Shown: one piece after another, positions 4,850 to 11,836 of the stretch
Layout: every line of letters starts with the position of its first letter
Position numbering within the stretch: position 1 is the stretch's first letter
Assembly (NCBI RefSeq): GCF_022846255.1
Contig: NZ_AP025682.1
Length of the DNA: 64,000 nt
Origin: Escherichia coli
GTDB taxonomy: Bacteria > Pseudomonadota > Gammaproteobacteria > Enterobacterales > Enterobacteriaceae
Direction: 5' to 3' (one strand)
Translations under genes and position numbers: made by a program
The notes under the pieces: generated by a model
The model's input: only the letters and a program-made list of their open reading frames with translations
The model's database searches: none
What the model was told of the DNA's origin: nothing

Positions 4850-5422
4850 ATGACTAAGAAGCTGAAAGCAAAACACGAGGTGTTTTGTCGCGAGTTTCTT
4901 GTCGATCTGAATGCTACACAAGCAGCTATTCGCGCAGGCTACGTCTCCAGGCGAGCACATGTTACGGGGGCTGAACTATACGGTAAACCTGAGATACGCG
5001 CCCGTATTAACGAGCTAAAGCAGGAGCGTATTGATCAACTGGGCATTGATGCGAATTATGTGCTGATACGACTGGTTGAGATCGACAGGCTCGATGTGGC
5101 TGACATCCTGGAGGACGATTTAAGTATTAAGCCTCTGTCTGCGTGGCCGGAATCGTGGCGTCGGTACCTGAGTGGATTTAACCTCGCTGAAATGTTTGAG
5201 GGGCGAGGAGATGACAGAGAAATGGTCGGGATCCTTAAAAAGATTAAGTGGCCTGATAAGGTTAAAAACCTTGAGTTGCTTGGGCGTCATGTTTCTGTTC
5301 AGGCGTTTAAAGACAACGTCAAAAATGAAGTGACTGGCGCTGATGGAGGACCCGTCAGAACAGAAATTACCAACTTAACGCCGGAGCAGGCTGCAGAGGC
5401 GTATAGAAAAATGATGGGCTAA
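4850..5422 (+). CDS. Terminase small subunit
   Basis: 190 aa; N-terminal [16 protein letters not shown] motif typical of phage small terminase; directly upstream of large terminase. Confidence 0.8.
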
Positions 5423-5424
5423 GT

Positions 5425-7047
5425 ATGCCGTTACCATTCCCCTTCGATTTTAAACATCCTGATTACCAGATGGTTTTTGAATGGCGGATGGAACGCCTGC
5501 AGCGCATTCGCCAGAATCCTGAAATATTGCCTGCACTAAAACAGTTTTACCGAACTAATCCGGCTCAGTTCATCATCGACTGGGGCATGACAACGGACCC
5601 GCGTAATATTGATTATGGCCTGCCGGTGACCATTCCGTTTTTACTCTTCCCTAAGCAGGAGGAGTGGATCCACTGGATTATGGAACGCTGGGGCAATCGG
5701 GAGAATGGTATTACCGAAAAATCCCGTGAAATGGGGCTCAGTTGGACCGCGATCGGACTGGCATGTTCGCTTTGTCTCTTCAACAAAGAAATGGTTATCG
5801 GTTTCGGCTCCCGTAAAGAGGAATACGTCGACAGCACCGGTGACCCGAAAGCATTGTTCTGGAAGGCGCGCAAGTTCGTGGAAACACTGCCTGTAGAGTT
5901 TCGCGGTTCGTGGAGCGAGAAGAAGCACGCGCCATATATGCGTGTTGAGTTTCCTGAAACTGGTGCCGTTATCAAAGGCGAGGCTGGCGATAATATTGGT
6001 CGTGGTGACCGTACCACGCTTTATCTGGTTGATGAGGCTGCATTCCTTCAGCGTCCTCTGCTGATTGATGCGGCGTTGTCACAAACGACGCGTTGCCGTA
6101 TCGACCTGAGTTCAGTTAACGGCATGGCGAACCCGTTCGCTCAGAAGCGTCATGGCGGGAAGATACCAGTATTCACATTCCACTGGCGGGATGATCCTCG
6201 CAAGGATGAAGAGTGGTATCGCAGGGAATGCGAGAAAATCGATAATCCGGTGGTGGTGGCACAGGAACTTGATCTGAACTACAGCGCATCAGCGGAAGGC
6301 GTCCTGATTCCATCCGAATGGGTACAGGCTGCCGTTGATGCGCATATCAAACTGGGTATCCAGCCAACAGGCAAACGACTTGGCGCGATGGATGTCGCCG
6401 ACGAAGGCAGGGACAAAAATGCCTTTTCCACCCGTCATGGCTTCCTCCTGGAAAATGTGCGGGAATGGTCCGGTGTGGGCAGCGACATTTATCAGTCCGT
6501 CGAGAAGGTTTTCGGCTTTTGCGAACAGGATAACCTCGAAGAGTTTCGCTTTGACGAGGACGGGCTGGGCGCTGGCGTTCGCGGCGATGCACGCGCTATC
6601 AACGAACTGCGTAACGCTGCGCGTCGACCGTCAATACTCGCCACACCGTTTCGAGGTAGTGGCGCGGTATTTGATCCGGATGATGAAGCTGTTCGCGGGG
6701 ACAACGGGCAAGCCGCACGTCTGAACAAGGACTTCTTCGCTAACGCCAAAGCCCAAAGCTGGTGGCGGTTACGTAAACTTTTTCAGAATACCTGGCGCGC
6801 CGTGGTTGAAGGTATGGCTTACAACCCGGACGAAATCATCTCAATCAGCAGTAGCATGGCACTCAAAGATAAACTCATCATCGAGCTTTCGCAGCCGACC
6901 TATTCCATTAATGGTGTGGGAAAAATCGTTATTGATAAACAGCCTGATGGGACCCGGTCGCCAAATCTTGCCGACTCGGTGATGATCAACTATGCCCCAA
7001 TGAATTCAGCCCTGAACATCTGGGAGTTGCTAGGGAGACAGGCCTGA
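5425..7047 (+). CDS. Terminase large subunit
   Basis: 540 aa; Walker B-like LYLVDEAAF; position between small terminase and portal. Confidence 0.75.
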
Positions 7048-8513
7048 TGGCACGAAACAAACAAGCCCTGCGGCGAACTGCGCAGGCCACAGCTGATGGT
7101 TATGAGAATTTTATCGCCCGCGTAGGGATGCAGACACCTAACCAGCACTCAGCATCCACCTACCGGGCTAATTTCACCAGTCGTAACCGCATGCTGGTGG
7201 AATGGTCCTATCGTTCTTCCTGGATCATCGGCGAAGCAGTCGATGCTATCCCGGATGATATGACCCGCAAAGGCATTCGCATCACTTCGGAAATTGATGC
7301 AAAAGATCGTGGCATTCTCGAATCACAACTGGATGAGTTGCAAATCTGGGATGCGCTGAATGACGTGCTGAAATGGTCGCGCCTCTACGGCGGCGCGGTG
7401 GGTTTCATCATGATTGAGGGGCAGGCACCAATGACCCCGCTGCGACCCGAAACCATCGGTAAGGGCAAGTTTAAGGGGATTCTCCCGCTCGACCGCTGGA
7501 TGATTGACCCGGTACTGACCCGCCGCATTAAAGATATGGGGCCGGACCTGGGTAAACCTGAGTTTTATGATGTGGTGACCACAGCAACGGGAATTCCTGC
7601 CTGGCGCATTCATCACAGTCGCCTGATTCGCTTTGATGGCGTCACGCTGCCATTTCAGCAGAAGATGACCGAGAACGAATGGGGAATGTCGGTTGTAGAG
7701 CGTATCTGGGATCGTCTTACCGCGTTCGACAGCGCTACTGTCGGTGCGGCGCAGCTGGTCTACAAGGCGCATTTGCGTACCTACAGCGTGGAGAAGCTAC
7801 GCGAGCTTATCGCACTTGGTGGTCCTGCGTATGAAGCGTTGCTGAAGAATATTGACCTGATTCGACAGTTCCAGAGCAATGAAGGCATGACTCTCATGGA
7901 CTCGCGGGATAAGTTTGAAACCCATCAGTACAGCTTCAGTGGTCTGGATGACATCCTTTCACAGTTTGCAGAACAGATTAGTGGCGCTGTTGGTATCCCA
8001 CTGGTGCGGTTGTTCGGACAGTCCCCGAAGGGATTTTCTACCGGCGATGCAGACCTTGCCAACTATTACGACCGGGTAAGTTCGTTGCAGGAGAGGCGTT
8101 TACGTCTTCCGGTGCGGCGGATACTGGACATCATGCATCGTTCGGAACTTGGCAAGCCGCTCCCGGATGATTTTACATTTGAGTTTAACCCGCTCTGGCA
8201 AATGTCTGATGTCGATCGTTCAACGGTGGCATTAAATACCACCAACGCAATCAGTACAGCGCTGGGTGATGGTCTGATGACACTGAAAGCTGCTATGACT
8301 GATTTGCGCGAAAATTCTGACGTAACCGGCATCGGGGCATCCATTACCGACGAGGACATCGAGAATGCCGAAGACGAAGCGCCGCCCGGCATCGGCGAAC
8401 CTGATGACGAACCGCAGGAACCGTCAGGCGGAAATCCGCTATCGAACCAGCCTACGCAGGATAGCGCGGGCGGTCGGGGACATCGTAAATGGTCGCTACG
8501 ATGGTTCAAATGA
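7047..8513 (+). CDS. Portal protein (putative)
   Basis: 488 aa; follows large terminase with ATGA overlap; acidic C-terminus. Confidence 0.65.
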   Translation: MARNKQALRRTAQATADGYENFIARVGMQTPNQHSASTYRANFTSRNRMLVEWSYRSSWIIGEAVDAIPDDMTRKGIRITSEIDAKDRGILESQLDELQIWDALNDVLKWSRLYGGAVGFIMIEGQAPMTPLRPETIGKGKFKGILPLDRWMIDPVLTRRIKDMGPDLGKPEFYDVVTTATGIPAWRIHHSRLIRFDGVTLPFQQKMTENEWGMSVVERIWDRLTAFDSATVGAAQLVYKAHLRTYSVEKLRELIALGGPAYEALLKNIDLIRQFQSNEGMTLMDSRDKFETHQYSFSGLDDILSQFAEQISGAVGIPLVRLFGQSPKGFSTGDADLANYYDRVSSLQERRLRLPVRRILDIMHRSELGKPLPDDFTFEFNPLWQMSDVDRSTVALNTTNAISTALGDGLMTLKAAMTDLRENSDVTGIGASITDEDIENAEDEAPPGIGEPDDEPQEPSGGNPLSNQPTQDSAGGRGHRKWSLRWFK

Positions 8514-9138
8514 CAGTATCACGGAAATTATTGAGGCGCTGGAACGCTACAGTGAAATCATAACCCCCTGGGCGACAAAGGTCGCGGAAAACTTTACCGC
8601 CGACATTGTGCGCAAGAATGATGAGCAGTGGCGTAAACACAGCAAAACCATCAGCCGTGAGCTACGCAATCTGGTAAACAGTGCCCCTCCAGGGCAGGTG
8701 ATGAAATCCATCGTTGCTGAACAGGTTAAGTACATCAAATCGCTACCCCTCGAGGCGGCTGACAGGGTGTACGACATCCAGAATCGGGCGATAGAAGCTG
8801 TTGTTACCGGTGGGAGAGCGGAACATTTTGCTAAAGAAATAGCAGCATCGGGTGATATAGCAAAGTCCAGAGCTGACCTGATTGCCTGTACTGAACTTGG
8901 ACGTGCAACCGGCGCGCTGGATCAGGCGCGTGCGCTGTCAATTGGTTCGAATGGTTATATCTGGCGTACAGCCGAAGATGGTGATGTCAGGCATTCTCAT
9001 CGGGAAATGGAAGGTAAATTTGTCGAATGGGGCAAACCTCCAACGCTTGACGGCATGACAGGTCACGCTGGCGAGCTCCCGAATTGTCGCTGTAATAAAG
9101 AAATTGTTTTTCCCACCTCCCATTCTTACCCCGCCTGA
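8365..9138 (+). CDS. Head morphogenesis protein (Mu F-like / SPP1 gp7 family); start uncertain
   Basis: 257 aa; C-terminal region with NCRC motif as in F-like minor capsid proteins; overlaps portal 3' end by 149 nt if the 8365 ATG is used (alternative ATG at 8404). Confidence 0.6.
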   Translation: MPKTKRRPASANLMTNRRNRQAEIRYRTSLRRIARAVGDIVNGRYDGSNDSITEIIEALERYSEIITPWATKVAENFTADIVRKNDEQWRKHSKTISRELRNLVNSAPPGQVMKSIVAEQVKYIKSLPLEAADRVYDIQNRAIEAVVTGGRAEHFAKEIAASGDIAKSRADLIACTELGRATGALDQARALSIGSNGYIWRTAEDGDVRHSHREMEGKFVEWGKPPTLDGMTGHAGELPNCRCNKEIVFPTSHSYPA

Positions 9139-9152
9139 ATCGCAGGTAACAC

Positions 9153-10373
9153 ATGAAATATTTTTTCAATACCCGGCTGGGGGAAACCCGCTATCAGCTG
9201 GCTGACGGCTCGTTGCTGTGCAGAGACGTGCCGATAGGACGAACAGGTAAGCAGCTCTATGGTGCTGATGACCTGCCAAAACTGAAACCCGATAAGTTCG
9301 GTGAAATAGTCGTCACGCGTTCTCCTGAGCAGGTATTCCATCCCGCCACGCTTGCCTCATTCGAAGGAATGAGTATCACGGTGTTGCATCCCGAGGATGA
9401 AAACGGGGATGTGCGGCTGGTGAATCCAGAGAACTGGAAAGAGCTCGCGGTCGGGCATCTTCAGAATGTCCGGCGCGGGGCGGGTGTGCAGTCTGATTTG
9501 ATGCTGGCTGACCTTATCGTCAAAGACGAAAACGCCATTCAGCTGATCGAAGATGGCCTGCGCGAAGTGTCGTGTGGCTATGACGCGGAATATAAACAGG
9601 CTGAGCCGGGTAAGGCTCAGCAGGTCGATATTACCGGAAACCATGTGGCTCTTGTCCCTAAAGGCAGAGCCGGAAATCGTTGTGCAATTGGAGACAGAGA
9701 CACAATGGCAAATCAAAAGAAAAGCTGGTGGACCCGCATGCGCACGGCCATCAAAACGGGTGACGCTGACACCATGAACGAACTGGTGGAGTCGGCTCCC
9801 GCATCGGTTACAGGAGATGAGGGGGATTTGCCGCAGGGCGTTAATCTCAACATCAACCTGTCCCCGCAGCAACCGCTACCGGACAAAGCACCAGAGATGG
9901 GCGGAGGTCCAACCGGCGACAGTGATGATGACCTCAAAACATTACTGAAAGCCCTGCTGGCTAAGCTGGAAGGAAATGCGACGGGCGATAACGACAATAA
10001 GCCTGACGATAATCCGACCGGTGACGGCGAGGACGATGAAGAGGAAACCACGATTACTGGTGACTCAGCCTGGCGTGCCGAAGTTATCGTTCCGGGTATC
10101 GATCTGAGCCGTAAGATGAAACCGACCGCGTTCAAACGTGAGGTTCTGGCTTCTGCTGACAAAACGCTGGTTCGCCAGATAGTCGGTGATGCGGATATCC
10201 GCAAATTACCGAAACAATCGGTCGACATGGCGTTTAATGCCGTGTCTGAGATTGCCAAAGGGCGAAACACCCGCGCCACCACCGGCGATGCACAGCGCCC
10301 AAACATGGGCATGACCAGTATCGCTTCCCTGAACAAACAAAACGCTGAATTCTGGGCAAACCGTAAAGGGTAA
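9153..10373 (+). CDS. Putative head scaffolding/protease-like protein
   Basis: 406 aa; highly acidic low-complexity central region (GDGEDDEEETT); position between portal/F-like and capsid genes. Confidence 0.45.
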   Translation: MKYFFNTRLGETRYQLADGSLLCRDVPIGRTGKQLYGADDLPKLKPDKFGEIVVTRSPEQVFHPATLASFEGMSITVLHPEDENGDVRLVNPENWKELAVGHLQNVRRGAGVQSDLMLADLIVKDENAIQLIEDGLREVSCGYDAEYKQAEPGKAQQVDITGNHVALVPKGRAGNRCAIGDRDTMANQKKSWWTRMRTAIKTGDADTMNELVESAPASVTGDEGDLPQGVNLNINLSPQQPLPDKAPEMGGGPTGDSDDDLKTLLKALLAKLEGNATGDNDNKPDDNPTGDGEDDEEETTITGDSAWRAEVIVPGIDLSRKMKPTAFKREVLASADKTLVRQIVGDADIRKLPKQSVDMAFNAVSEIAKGRNTRATTGDAQRPNMGMTSIASLNKQNAEFWANRKG

Positions 10374-10376
10374 AAA

Positions 10377-10883
10377 ATGAATAATGTATTTCTGTACCGG
10401 ATGCCTGTTGGCATTGCCGGGGCCGTCTCTCGCCCGCAGGACTTAACCGTCGAACCGGTGGTCCTTAAATCCGATAACGCCTTCGCTGCCTATGGCCTGG
10501 CTGGTAAATACGATGATGACGGTTTTTTCGTGCCGCTGGCAGATGGTGATACCGCAGACAAGGTGAAGGGGATCTACGTGCGCCCTTATCCGACCACTTC
10601 GCAGCCGGACATGGTTCGCCAGGTGGGGACTGGCAAGAACTTCCCGGGCGACGCCATGAAGCGTGGCTACGTGACCGTTAATCTCGGTTCTGATTTTGAT
10701 GCCAGCACCATCAAAAAAGGCGACCCGGTATACGTTGTCGTCTCCACTGATGAATCCATCAAAGTGCCGCTGGGTGGATTCATGGCCACGTCAGTCAGTG
10801 GCAAAAACGTGGTGCTGACCAACGCTGAATTCACAGGTGCCGGTGATGCTGACGGCAATGCAGAAATTTCCTGGAAGATTTAA
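10377..10883 (+). CDS. Putative head structural/decoration protein
   Basis: 168 aa ORF tightly packed immediately upstream of the major capsid gene. Confidence 0.4.
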   Translation: MNNVFLYRMPVGIAGAVSRPQDLTVEPVVLKSDNAFAAYGLAGKYDDDGFFVPLADGDTADKVKGIYVRPYPTTSQPDMVRQVGTGKNFPGDAMKRGYVTVNLGSDFDASTIKKGDPVYVVVSTDESIKVPLGGFMATSVSGKNVVLTNAEFTGAGDADGNAEISWKI

Positions 10884-10894
10884 GGAACAGACGA

Positions 10895-11836
10895 ATGATT
10901 ACTTTTGATCAGGCAACCGTTGACAGCTCTGGTGCCTTTCTCATCGGGGAGCTGGAGCGACTCGACCAGACGCTGAACCTGCCACTGGTGGGGTACACCT
11001 GGACCCGCGATATTCAGTTGCGTGAAGATGTCTCCATCGCAGATGACATTTCCAGCTGGACGAATACCAGCTTCGCCGCTGCGGGTACTGGTGCAAATCC
11101 GAATGGCAAAAACTGGGTAGGCAAAGACTCAACCGCTATTGCTGGCGTGAACGTGGATATCGGCAAATCCGGTAACCCGCTGAACTTGTGGGGGATGGAA
11201 CTTGGCTGGACGGTCATAGAATTGCAGGCTGCTCAGCAGATCGGACGCCCGATTGATACGCAGAAGTATGACGGGATGCAACTGAAATGGCAGATGGATA
11301 ACGATGAACAGGTATATGTTGGCGATTCCGCATTAAACCTGAAAGGTCTTGTTACCCTGGACGGCGTGCCTGTCAACAACGCTGCCAAAACGTGGGCAAC
11401 CTCAACACCGGACGAAATCCGCGCAAGCATTAACCAGGTGCTGTCTGATGCGTGGGCCGCTTCCGGTTACTCTGTGGTTCCGCGTGATTTGCTGATCCCG
11501 CCTGAGCAGTTTGCTCTGTTGTCCAGCATCATCGTTTCATCTGCGGGTAACCAGTCCCTGTTGACGTACCTTCAGACCAACACCATCAGCTATCACCAGA
11601 ACGGTGTTCCGCTGAATATCCGCGCGGTTAAATGGCTGAAAGGCCGTGGTGTGGGGAATAAGGATCGCATGGTTGCGTACACCAACGATAAAAAATACGT
11701 CCGCTACCCGCTGGTTCCGCTTCAGAGCGTGCCGGTGCAGTATCGCGGTCTGTATCAGATCGTCACTTACTACGGCAAGCTGGGTGCAGTCGAGCCAGTG
11801 TACAAAGAAACCATTTCGTACGTTGATGGCATTTAA
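10895..11836 (+). CDS. Major capsid protein (putative)
   Basis: 313 aa; position after scaffold-like gene. Confidence 0.55.
   Translation: MITFDQATVDSSGAFLIGELERLDQTLNLPLVGYTWTRDIQLREDVSIADDISSWTNTSFAAAGTGANPNGKNWVGKDSTAIAGVNVDIGKSGNPLNLWGMELGWTVIELQAAQQIGRPIDTQKYDGMQLKWQMDNDEQVYVGDSALNLKGLVTLDGVPVNNAAKTWATSTPDEIRASINQVLSDAWAASGYSVVPRDLLIPPEQFALLSSIIVSSAGNQSLLTYLQTNTISYHQNGVPLNIRAVKWLKGRGVGNKDRMVAYTNDKKYVRYPLVPLQSVPVQYRGLYQIVTYYGKLGAVEPVYKETISYVDGI

Follow-up and report, generated by a model that had tools for sequence, protein, structure and literature searches.

The portal gene and a MuF-like head morphogenesis gene share 149 nucleotides in different frames in an Escherichia coli prophage

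Can two head-assembly genes of a prophage genuinely share 149 nucleotides (nt) in different reading frames, and if so, where does the second gene start and what becomes of the end of the first? This question is raised by a locus in a 64,000-nt stretch of Escherichia coli DNA (contig NZ_AP025682.1 of assembly GCF_022846255.1; hereafter, the window). On the plus strand, an ATG-initiated gene encoding a portal protein of 488 amino acids (aa; 7047-8513) is followed by a gene, denoted F here, that encodes a 257-aa minor head (head morphogenesis) protein related to MuF and SPP1 gp7 (8365-9138, counted from ATG 8365). Positions 8365-8513 of the plus strand belong to both open reading frames (ORFs), comprising portal codons 440-488 and the stop codon in frame 0 as well as F codons 1-50 in frame +1 (8365 - 7047 = 1318). 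An earlier note on this DNA had pointed to the out-of-frame overlap and to an in-frame internal ATG at 8404-8406 (Met14 of F), and both are borne out by the ORF list. The note offered three explanations, namely, an F start at 8404 or another internal site, a real overlap tied to translational coupling, or an indel in the 3' end of the portal gene. The 149-nt, co-directional, +1 overlap of these two genes is genuine, and we consider it likely that it is evolutionarily maintained.

The portal protein matches PF06381 (Phage_portal_3/DUF1073) with 354 bits over residues 55-402 and TIGR01555 with 251.8 bits, and its homologs with solved structures include the portals of Pam3 (8HDS, E = 2.7e-37) and phage T1 (9L01) as well as 9JLF; the C-terminal portal fragment, used alone as a query, retrieved nothing useful. 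F matches PF04233 (Phage_Mu_F) with 60.8 bits (cut-off 29.6) over residues 137-244, TIGR01641 with 40.0 bits (cut-off 39.65), and phrog_324 with E = 1.2e-87 over residues 8-255; no solved structure of F was found by sequence search. The F gene is located directly downstream of the portal gene, as expected of MuF-type genes (PMC5576092).

The overlap recurs in a large number of genomes. A prophage of E. coli O55:H7 strain CB9615 shares 99.7% identity with the segment, and Salmonella phage SEN34 (genus Brunovirus) shares 84%; according to its genome paper, SEN34 is a myovirus that forms plaques and can be induced with mitomycin. Matches were detected in 381 of 5,426 complete E. coli genomes, including 337 full-length ones; all 26 full-length rows among the 30 matches listed consist of a single aligned piece. 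In addition, 80 IMG/VR loci encoding F were fetched, giving 61 distinct sequences including the window. All 80 loci, which span 8100-8700, align to the window without gaps. The portal stop codon is the TGA at 8511-8513, located inside the F codons Asn49-Asp50 (AAT GAC), in 44 of the 61 distinct sequences, and a TAG one codon later in the remaining 17; in all 61, the portal frame contains no stop until 8513 or 8516, and the F frame none from 8365 on.

These observations bear directly on the possibility that the 3' end of the portal gene contains a frameshift, an indel, or a sequencing error, such that the true portal would end earlier or in another frame. In favor of such an error, the portal of the distant phage T1 terminates close to the position that corresponds to residue 457, and the tail of the window portal is disordered and poorly conserved. 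Against it, the portal frame and the stop region are alike in the 80 gapless loci and in hundreds of independently sequenced E. coli genomes, the relation between the two frames is the same in 23 of 23 lineages, and the layout is found in viable phages, including plaque-forming SEN34 and other isolated phages. Portals that end before 8404, which the earlier note had named as a sign of such an error, are absent among close relatives; an earlier end is confined to very distant portals (T1, 24% identity). Given the gapless loci, the shared stops, and the open F frame, an indel or sequencing artifact is therefore excluded, and the chance that the portal truly ends elsewhere is negligible. Furthermore, across Enterobacterales, both F (257 aa) and the portal (488 aa) correspond to their orthologs over the entire length, and neither bears the signature of annotation artifacts described by Palleja et al. 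2008, that is, a length unlike that of the orthologs caused by 5' over-extension or 3' frameshift extension.

ATG 8365, which is made from the portal codons AAT|GCC (8365-8367), is the predicted start of F. It is invariant throughout: all 61 distinct close sequences have it, and so does every divergent lineage, whereas ATG 8404 is present in 35 of the 61 sequences and is replaced with GCG, TCG or ACG in the other 26. Scoring of the ribosome-binding sites also favors the upstream codon: the predicted pairing with the anti-Shine-Dalgarno sequence is -5.9 kcal/mol upstream of 8365, where the Shine-Dalgarno (SD) motif GAGGA (8352-8356) is separated from the ATG by 8 nt, compared to -2.1 kcal/mol at 8404, which lacks an SD. 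The GAGGA motif is spelled by a conserved Asp-Glu-Asp of the portal (GAC GAG GAC), and its Glu codon is GAG in 15 of 15 divergent lineages. The portal codon that runs into the F ATG is always AAT or GAT, never AAC or GAC. Thus, two third bases that are synonymous for the portal, the T of the Asn/Asp codon and the G of the Glu codon, are fixed in 15 of 15 divergent lineages, against a background frequency of 0.35-0.49 for T-ending and GAG codons in the remainder of these portal genes; the neighboring third positions of the Asp and Ile codons vary freely. In 16 of the 61 distinct sequences, the F frame contains a stop two codons upstream of ATG 8365.

The same start context extends to more diverse hosts. 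We collected 20 loci from bacterial contigs, one genome per species (Shimwellia, Rahnella, Pantoea, Xenorhabdus, Izhakiella, Rosenbergiella, Morganella, Rouxiella, and Arsenophonus), in which F is 58-89% identical to that of the window. The portal/F junction was resolved in 19 of these loci, the remaining one (L095) having no long upstream portal-like ORF. In each of the 19 resolved loci, a Met followed by a basic stretch is encoded at the equivalent place, and loci of the main type carry the same GAYGAGGAYAT...ATG context.

Translation of F from ATG 8404, as the earlier note had considered, would yield a 244-aa protein, with the 13 upstream codons untranslated in the F frame, and would still leave an overlap of 110 nt. 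This start was called by the Prokaryotic Genome Annotation Pipeline in CB9615, and 244/245-aa forms dominate the NCBI records; a Met is found at this position in Xenorhabdus poinarii, Pantoea, Morganella, and Providencia, the F frame is relaxed over 8365-8403, and F residues 1-16 are disordered in the AlphaFold2 model. However, beyond the non-start codons in 26 of the 61 close variants and the weak SD pairing, at least six distant lineages lack any start candidate near this position, while the portal-synonymous sites that form the upstream ATG and its SD are conserved throughout and the Met with the basic stretch is encoded at the upstream start in every lineage. We regard initiation of F at 8404 as unlikely and the upstream ATG 8365 as the predicted start. 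The third candidate codon, at 8530-8532, is ATT in the window and in 39 of the 61 sequences and ATG in 22, and is annotated as the F start in relatives where it is an ATG.

The start calls in public databases are heterogeneous. RefSeq places the F start at 8404 in CB9615 and at the equivalent of 8530 in SEN34 and in strain 2021CK-01361. Overall, public records contain F forms of 244/245, 202, 176, and 149 aa with at least five different N-termini (clusters P0003, P0040, P0047, P0056, P0059, and P0116), whereas the 257-aa form is called only by non-NCBI sources and never in NCBI-sourced records. The RefSeq starts of F are thus inconsistent and probably too short. For annotation, the start of the 257-aa form is the only one conserved across the family, and the shorter calls, namely, the forms of 202 aa or less including the 8530 start, delete a conserved, structured helix comprising residues 20-44.

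To what extent each frame is constrained within the overlap can be read from the distribution of polymorphisms. Upstream of the overlap, polymorphic columns fall mostly in portal codon position 3 (36 of 50 and 28 of 38), and downstream of it, in F position 3 (47 of 63); within 8404-8513, 16 of 36 are in F position 3 compared to 7 of 37 in portal position 3. Ratios of nonsynonymous to synonymous polymorphism (pN/pS) were calculated by summed pairwise Nei-Gojobori comparison of 77 distinct full-length sequences. The values are 0.00-0.12 for portal-only sequence in the portal frame and 0.07-0.23 for F-only sequence in the F frame; the F frame in the overlap at 8404-8513 falls at 0.13-0.22, whereas the control, portal-only sequence read in the F frame, yields at least 1.47 in all 81 windows. 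Over 8365-8403, the portal frame is better conserved (pN/pS of 0.22) than the F frame (0.70). Hence constraint passes from the portal frame in 8365-8403 to the F frame in 8404-8513.

Within F, residues 1-19 (8365-8421) form a basic, variable N-terminal tail, and residues 20-44 (8422-8496), a conserved N-terminal helix. In the AlphaFold2 model built on the F alignment, the mean predicted local distance difference test score (pLDDT) is 84, the helix is predicted with pLDDT above 90, and residues 1-16 are predicted to be disordered, with pLDDT below 50. Residues E23, Y26, L30, A34, G38, and I40 are invariant or nearly so in homologs down to 39-48% identity, a set that includes Klebsiella phage GZ7, Burkholderia phage Magia, Edwardsiella phage ZHS, Bordetella phage IFTN9, and Acinetobacter phage Ab105-1phi. 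In Klebsiella phage JD001 and Iodobacter phage phiPLPE, reverse-strand genes part F from the portal gene. The free-standing F of JD001 opens directly with the helix motif (MSRQTELNYYRQLKQVARLV, aligned to window residues 19-42), and in phiPLPE, the motif comes after a basic leader. Because the helix motif is present in free-standing F genes, the F frame can be identified as the ancestral one over 8404-8513.

These findings also address the possibility that there is no real overlap, F starting past the portal stop and the open frame upstream being accidental. The annotation of SEN34 and 2021CK-01361 from the equivalent of 8530 would support this possibility, and so would a survey of 338 prokaryotic genomes that found no real co-directional overlap longer than 60 bp, with holD/rimI being the longest real one, and rated all longer ones as misannotations (PMC2478687). 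However, codon 8530 is ATT in the window and most of the close variants (39 of 61), the F frame is under purifying selection over 8404-8513, and this region encodes the confidently predicted helix that opens the free-standing F of JD001 and phiPLPE. An accidental upstream frame is extremely unlikely, and the overlap remains the favored explanation.

We then considered the portal C-terminus, where the evidence is more evenly divided. Residues 444-488 of the portal (8376-8510) form a tail that is predicted by AlphaFold2 to be disordered (pLDDT about 30), is acidic and proline-rich, and ends in the basic/aromatic RGHRKWSLRWFK. The solved portals of T1 (9L01, 427 aa) and 9JLF (444 aa) align with the window portal up to residue 452 (...EPEPGLGEK vs ...EAPPGIGEP) and end five residues later. 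Given that these portals end near 457, the last ~31 residues of the window portal are an extension printed over the F helix. Each of the two proteins thus lays a less constrained, disordered part over the more constrained part of the other.

The overlap could be real in the DNA with the portal tail being a meaningless run-on to the first stop that the F frame happens to make, perhaps trimmed or ignored; this is a possible, although not the favored, account. It would be compatible with the predicted disorder, with a stop created by the invariant F motif Asn-Asp-Ser and drifting between lineages, with the truncation of the tail in Arsenophonus, and with its absence from T1, IFTN9, and Ab105. One argument against a run-on is the avoidance of stops. 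Under random synonymous recoding of the window with the F protein fixed, the portal frame stays open for the observed 49 codons in 2.2-2.4% of the trials, the simulated median first portal-frame stop being at codon 11; across 19 enterobacterial lineages, the frame is kept open in 0.9-13% of the trials per lineage (P = 0.009-0.13), probabilities that are not simply multiplied because the lineages are not independent. The portal-frame pN/pS over 8406-8510 is 0.92, below the typical wrong-frame value (median 2.3) but within the range of the wrong-frame controls (minimum 0.78).

The second argument comes from four Xenorhabdus prophages (X. lircayensis, innexi, szentirmaii, and griffiniae; loci L091, L092, L094, and L099), in which the portal contains an in-frame insertion of ~80 aa (…LNGAQISSMVEIVSSVAAGLLPRDTGIQMLISSY…QEAEQIMGSVGNGF…; L091:2760-3000) after ...PPQIGEP, and the tail frame is kept beyond it. 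The insertion inactivates the original F start, whose ATG now opens a dead ORF of 19 codons, and a new ATG with a GGGGAG SD is located directly after the insert. The inserted segment looks like a small helical domain; it has no match to any Pfam or PHROG family. That these four loci might encode a different portal family sharing the tail was rejected, as BLASTP identifies the same portal, with 76% identity over residues 1-452. Together, the avoidance of stops and the in-frame insertion suggest weak selection on the portal tail rather than neutrality.

Several observations, beyond the non-independence of the lineages and the breadth of the wrong-frame controls, weigh against a maintained dual-coding region. 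The reduced F-synonymous rate (0.20-0.24; median 0.36) is within the range seen elsewhere in F (0.136-0.494). The position of the portal stop drifts among lineages, resulting in overlaps of 92-179 nt, and the invariant F motif YDGSND dictates the conserved ...LRWFK end of the portal. In Arsenophonus, the last ~20 portal residues are missing. Many relatives have an additional in-frame ATG, GTG, or TTG near F codon 10-15, so a second, shorter F isoform may be produced from a minor start near codon 13-14 in some lineages. In Candidatus Arsenophonus triatominarum (L103:3001-3092), the portal frame ends about 20 codons early (…GGNPISNEPE*), giving an overlap of 92 nt; this truncation reflects either a decaying endosymbiont prophage or the dispensability of the last part of the tail.

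How would two proteins be made from this arrangement? Ribosomes translating the portal would run to the TGA at 8511-8513 and produce the 488-aa portal, the last ~45 residues of which would be the disordered tail. Other ribosomes would initiate on their own within the portal ORF, using ATG 8365 and its GAGGA SD, and read the +1 frame to produce the full 257-aa MuF-like minor head protein, with residues 1-19 serving as a basic flexible tail and residues 20-44 forming the first helix of the F fold. The portal tail would be a later run-on extension printed over the older F frame at 8404-8513. Elongation in the portal frame through the F start site probably competes with F initiation. We infer, from sequence comparisons, that both proteins are produced in this manner. 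An F start inside a translated ORF might in this way help to keep F below the portal. Such a low output would fit a minor protein, since SPP1 capsids contain 1-2 copies of gp7 beside a 12-copy portal.

Internal initiation of F is inferred in preference to termination-reinitiation, in which ribosomes that end the portal would scan back and restart at the F ATG. The two genes are co-directional within one operon, and the neighboring junction invites the comparison: the TerL stop and the portal start share one base (TGATG, 7045-7049) behind a GGGAG SD, a classical coupling junction, unlike the 149-nt overlap one gene further on. Termination-reinitiation calls for a stop at or near the start codon, but the portal stop lies 146-149 nt downstream of ATG 8365, and reinitiation is known to work only over distances far shorter than 149 nt. 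In addition, a conserved SD belongs to F itself, and a search for a conserved structure at the F start that might be opened by portal translation was negative: RNAalifold yields -0.21 kcal/mol with no compensatory pairs, and the single-sequence fold is weaker than those of shuffled sequences (z = +0.98). Coupling of this kind is very improbable; of the joint suggestion made in the earlier note, the real overlap stands, with conservation and both frames open, and the translational coupling is not supported.

Alternatively, a fraction of the ribosomes could shift to +1 within 8365-8513, giving a portal-MuF fusion of about 700 aa. Natural proteins of this kind are known from other families (phrog_2662 and phrog_859), which makes such a fusion conceivable; it would resemble those single chains and equip the portal ring with one F domain or a small number of them. 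In 16 of the 61 sequences, the F frame has a stop two codons ahead of the ATG, which limits any +1 shift to the inside of the overlap. No conserved RNA structure or stop context for a +1 frameshift was found, shift-prone sites having not been systematically searched, and we consider frameshifting highly unlikely compared with independent initiation at ATG 8365.

The overlap is widespread among phages. Portal/F overlaps of 68-179 nt were identified in more than 20 lineages, including Xenorhabdus, Pantoea, and Morganella, and the +1 frame relation is constant in all 23 lineages tested. The length of the overlap is 149 nt in Klebsiella phage GZ7, with an identical SD context, about 170 nt in Burkholderia phage Magia, 77 nt in Edwardsiella phage ZHS, 68 nt in Bordetella phage IFTN9, 74-80 nt in Acinetobacter phage Ab105-1phi, and 59-80 nt in Actinobacillus (Aggregatibacter) phage Aaphi23. 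All relatives examined, to protein identities as low as about 40%, have the same architecture. The overlap thus appears to be an old, variable-length feature of the head module and no peculiarity of the window.

Long out-of-frame overlaps are classical in small phages, and phiX174 A/B/K and D/E, the MS2 lysis gene, and lambda Rz/Rz1 are the textbook overprinted genes; an older structured frame combined with a younger disordered one is the usual signature of overprinting. The arrangement described here likewise has two frames on one DNA stretch and initiation inside a translated ORF. However, the phiX174, MS2, and lambda cases are mostly whole novel genes nested in older ones, whereas in the window, the overlap is confined to the ends of two ancient structural proteins that fold separately, and all that is new is the extension of the portal tail. 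The direction of overprinting can accordingly be read off, with an old F helix and a younger, disordered portal tail. A further parallel is holD/rimI of Enterobacteria, also a conserved, co-directional, out-of-frame 3'/5' overlap, which spans 32-56 bp (PMC2478687) compared with 149 nt in the window and up to 179 nt in its relatives, here in a prophage. The prophage head module would therefore be a well-supported exception to the 60-bp limit of that survey.

A related case is phage T1, whose portal gp52 (9L01) and head morphogenesis protein gp51 belong to a homologous head module with the same order of genes (TerS, TerL, portal, MuF-like, protease, and capsid). The T1 portal is homologous to that of the window (E = 1.9e-22), and the F start of T1 is also located inside the portal 3' end, behind a GGGGAG SD, but the two genes overlap by just 11 nt; the T1 portal stops about 5 residues past ...EPEPGLGEK, the window portal being ~31 residues longer. 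The portal-MuF fusions represented by phrog_2662 and phrog_859 combine the same two functions in the same order, and the window F matches the C-terminal part of these profiles; in contrast, they are single in-frame polypeptides with a portal of another family, and the window portal has no match to these PHROGs. In SPP1, the muf gene (gp7) is likewise located directly downstream of the portal gene (gp6), and its product binds the portal, with 1-2 copies found per capsid (PMC5576092); a long overlap has not been reported for this pair. A portal/MuF overlap is not described in the literature searched, including the SEN34 genome paper and the MuF family paper (PMC5576092). The overlap is an ordinary but well-supported example of a known, uncommon arrangement and offers a clean case of overprinting between gene termini. 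For phage engineering, it implies that edits to the portal C-terminus of SEN34-like phages, such as tags or truncations, would also alter the F start, its SD, or the first helix of F.

The rest of the prophage head module surrounds the two genes: a TerS-like ORF (4850-5422) and TerL (5425-7047) are encoded upstream, and a DUF2213 protein (9153-10373), a small structural protein (10377-10883), and a further large ORF (10895-11836), which occupies the place of the major capsid gene of related phages, downstream. The blocks inserted between the portal and the MuF-like gene of JD001 (L110:937-1940) and phiPLPE (L112:315-1871) consist of small reverse-strand genes and break the otherwise nearly universal portal-MuF linkage. 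A database protein from ENA (P0091, 388 aa) that is 86% identical to the window F carries PF09950 in addition to the PF04233 MuF domain, which may reflect a fusion, a misassembly, or an error in gene calling.

An antisense ORF of 147 aa with a TTG start (8066-8509, minus strand) runs opposite the portal 3' end. Among 13 divergent relatives, it remains free of stops over 119-147 codons in 12 and over 82 codons in the other. It was rejected as a gene because recoded portal sequences predict 1.2-2.4 antisense stops per 100 codons and 1-4 are seen; the recoding simulations attribute its openness to a C-terminal region of the portal that is poor in Tyr, His, and Gln. Of the portal gene, the laboratory strains E. 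coli B, BL21, and NEBExpress retain only the first 753 nt (window 7047-7799; 98.9% identity), and RefSeq names this fragment 'anti-CBASS protein Acb1 family protein', although Pfam, NCBIfam, and solved homologs identify the full-length protein as a portal.

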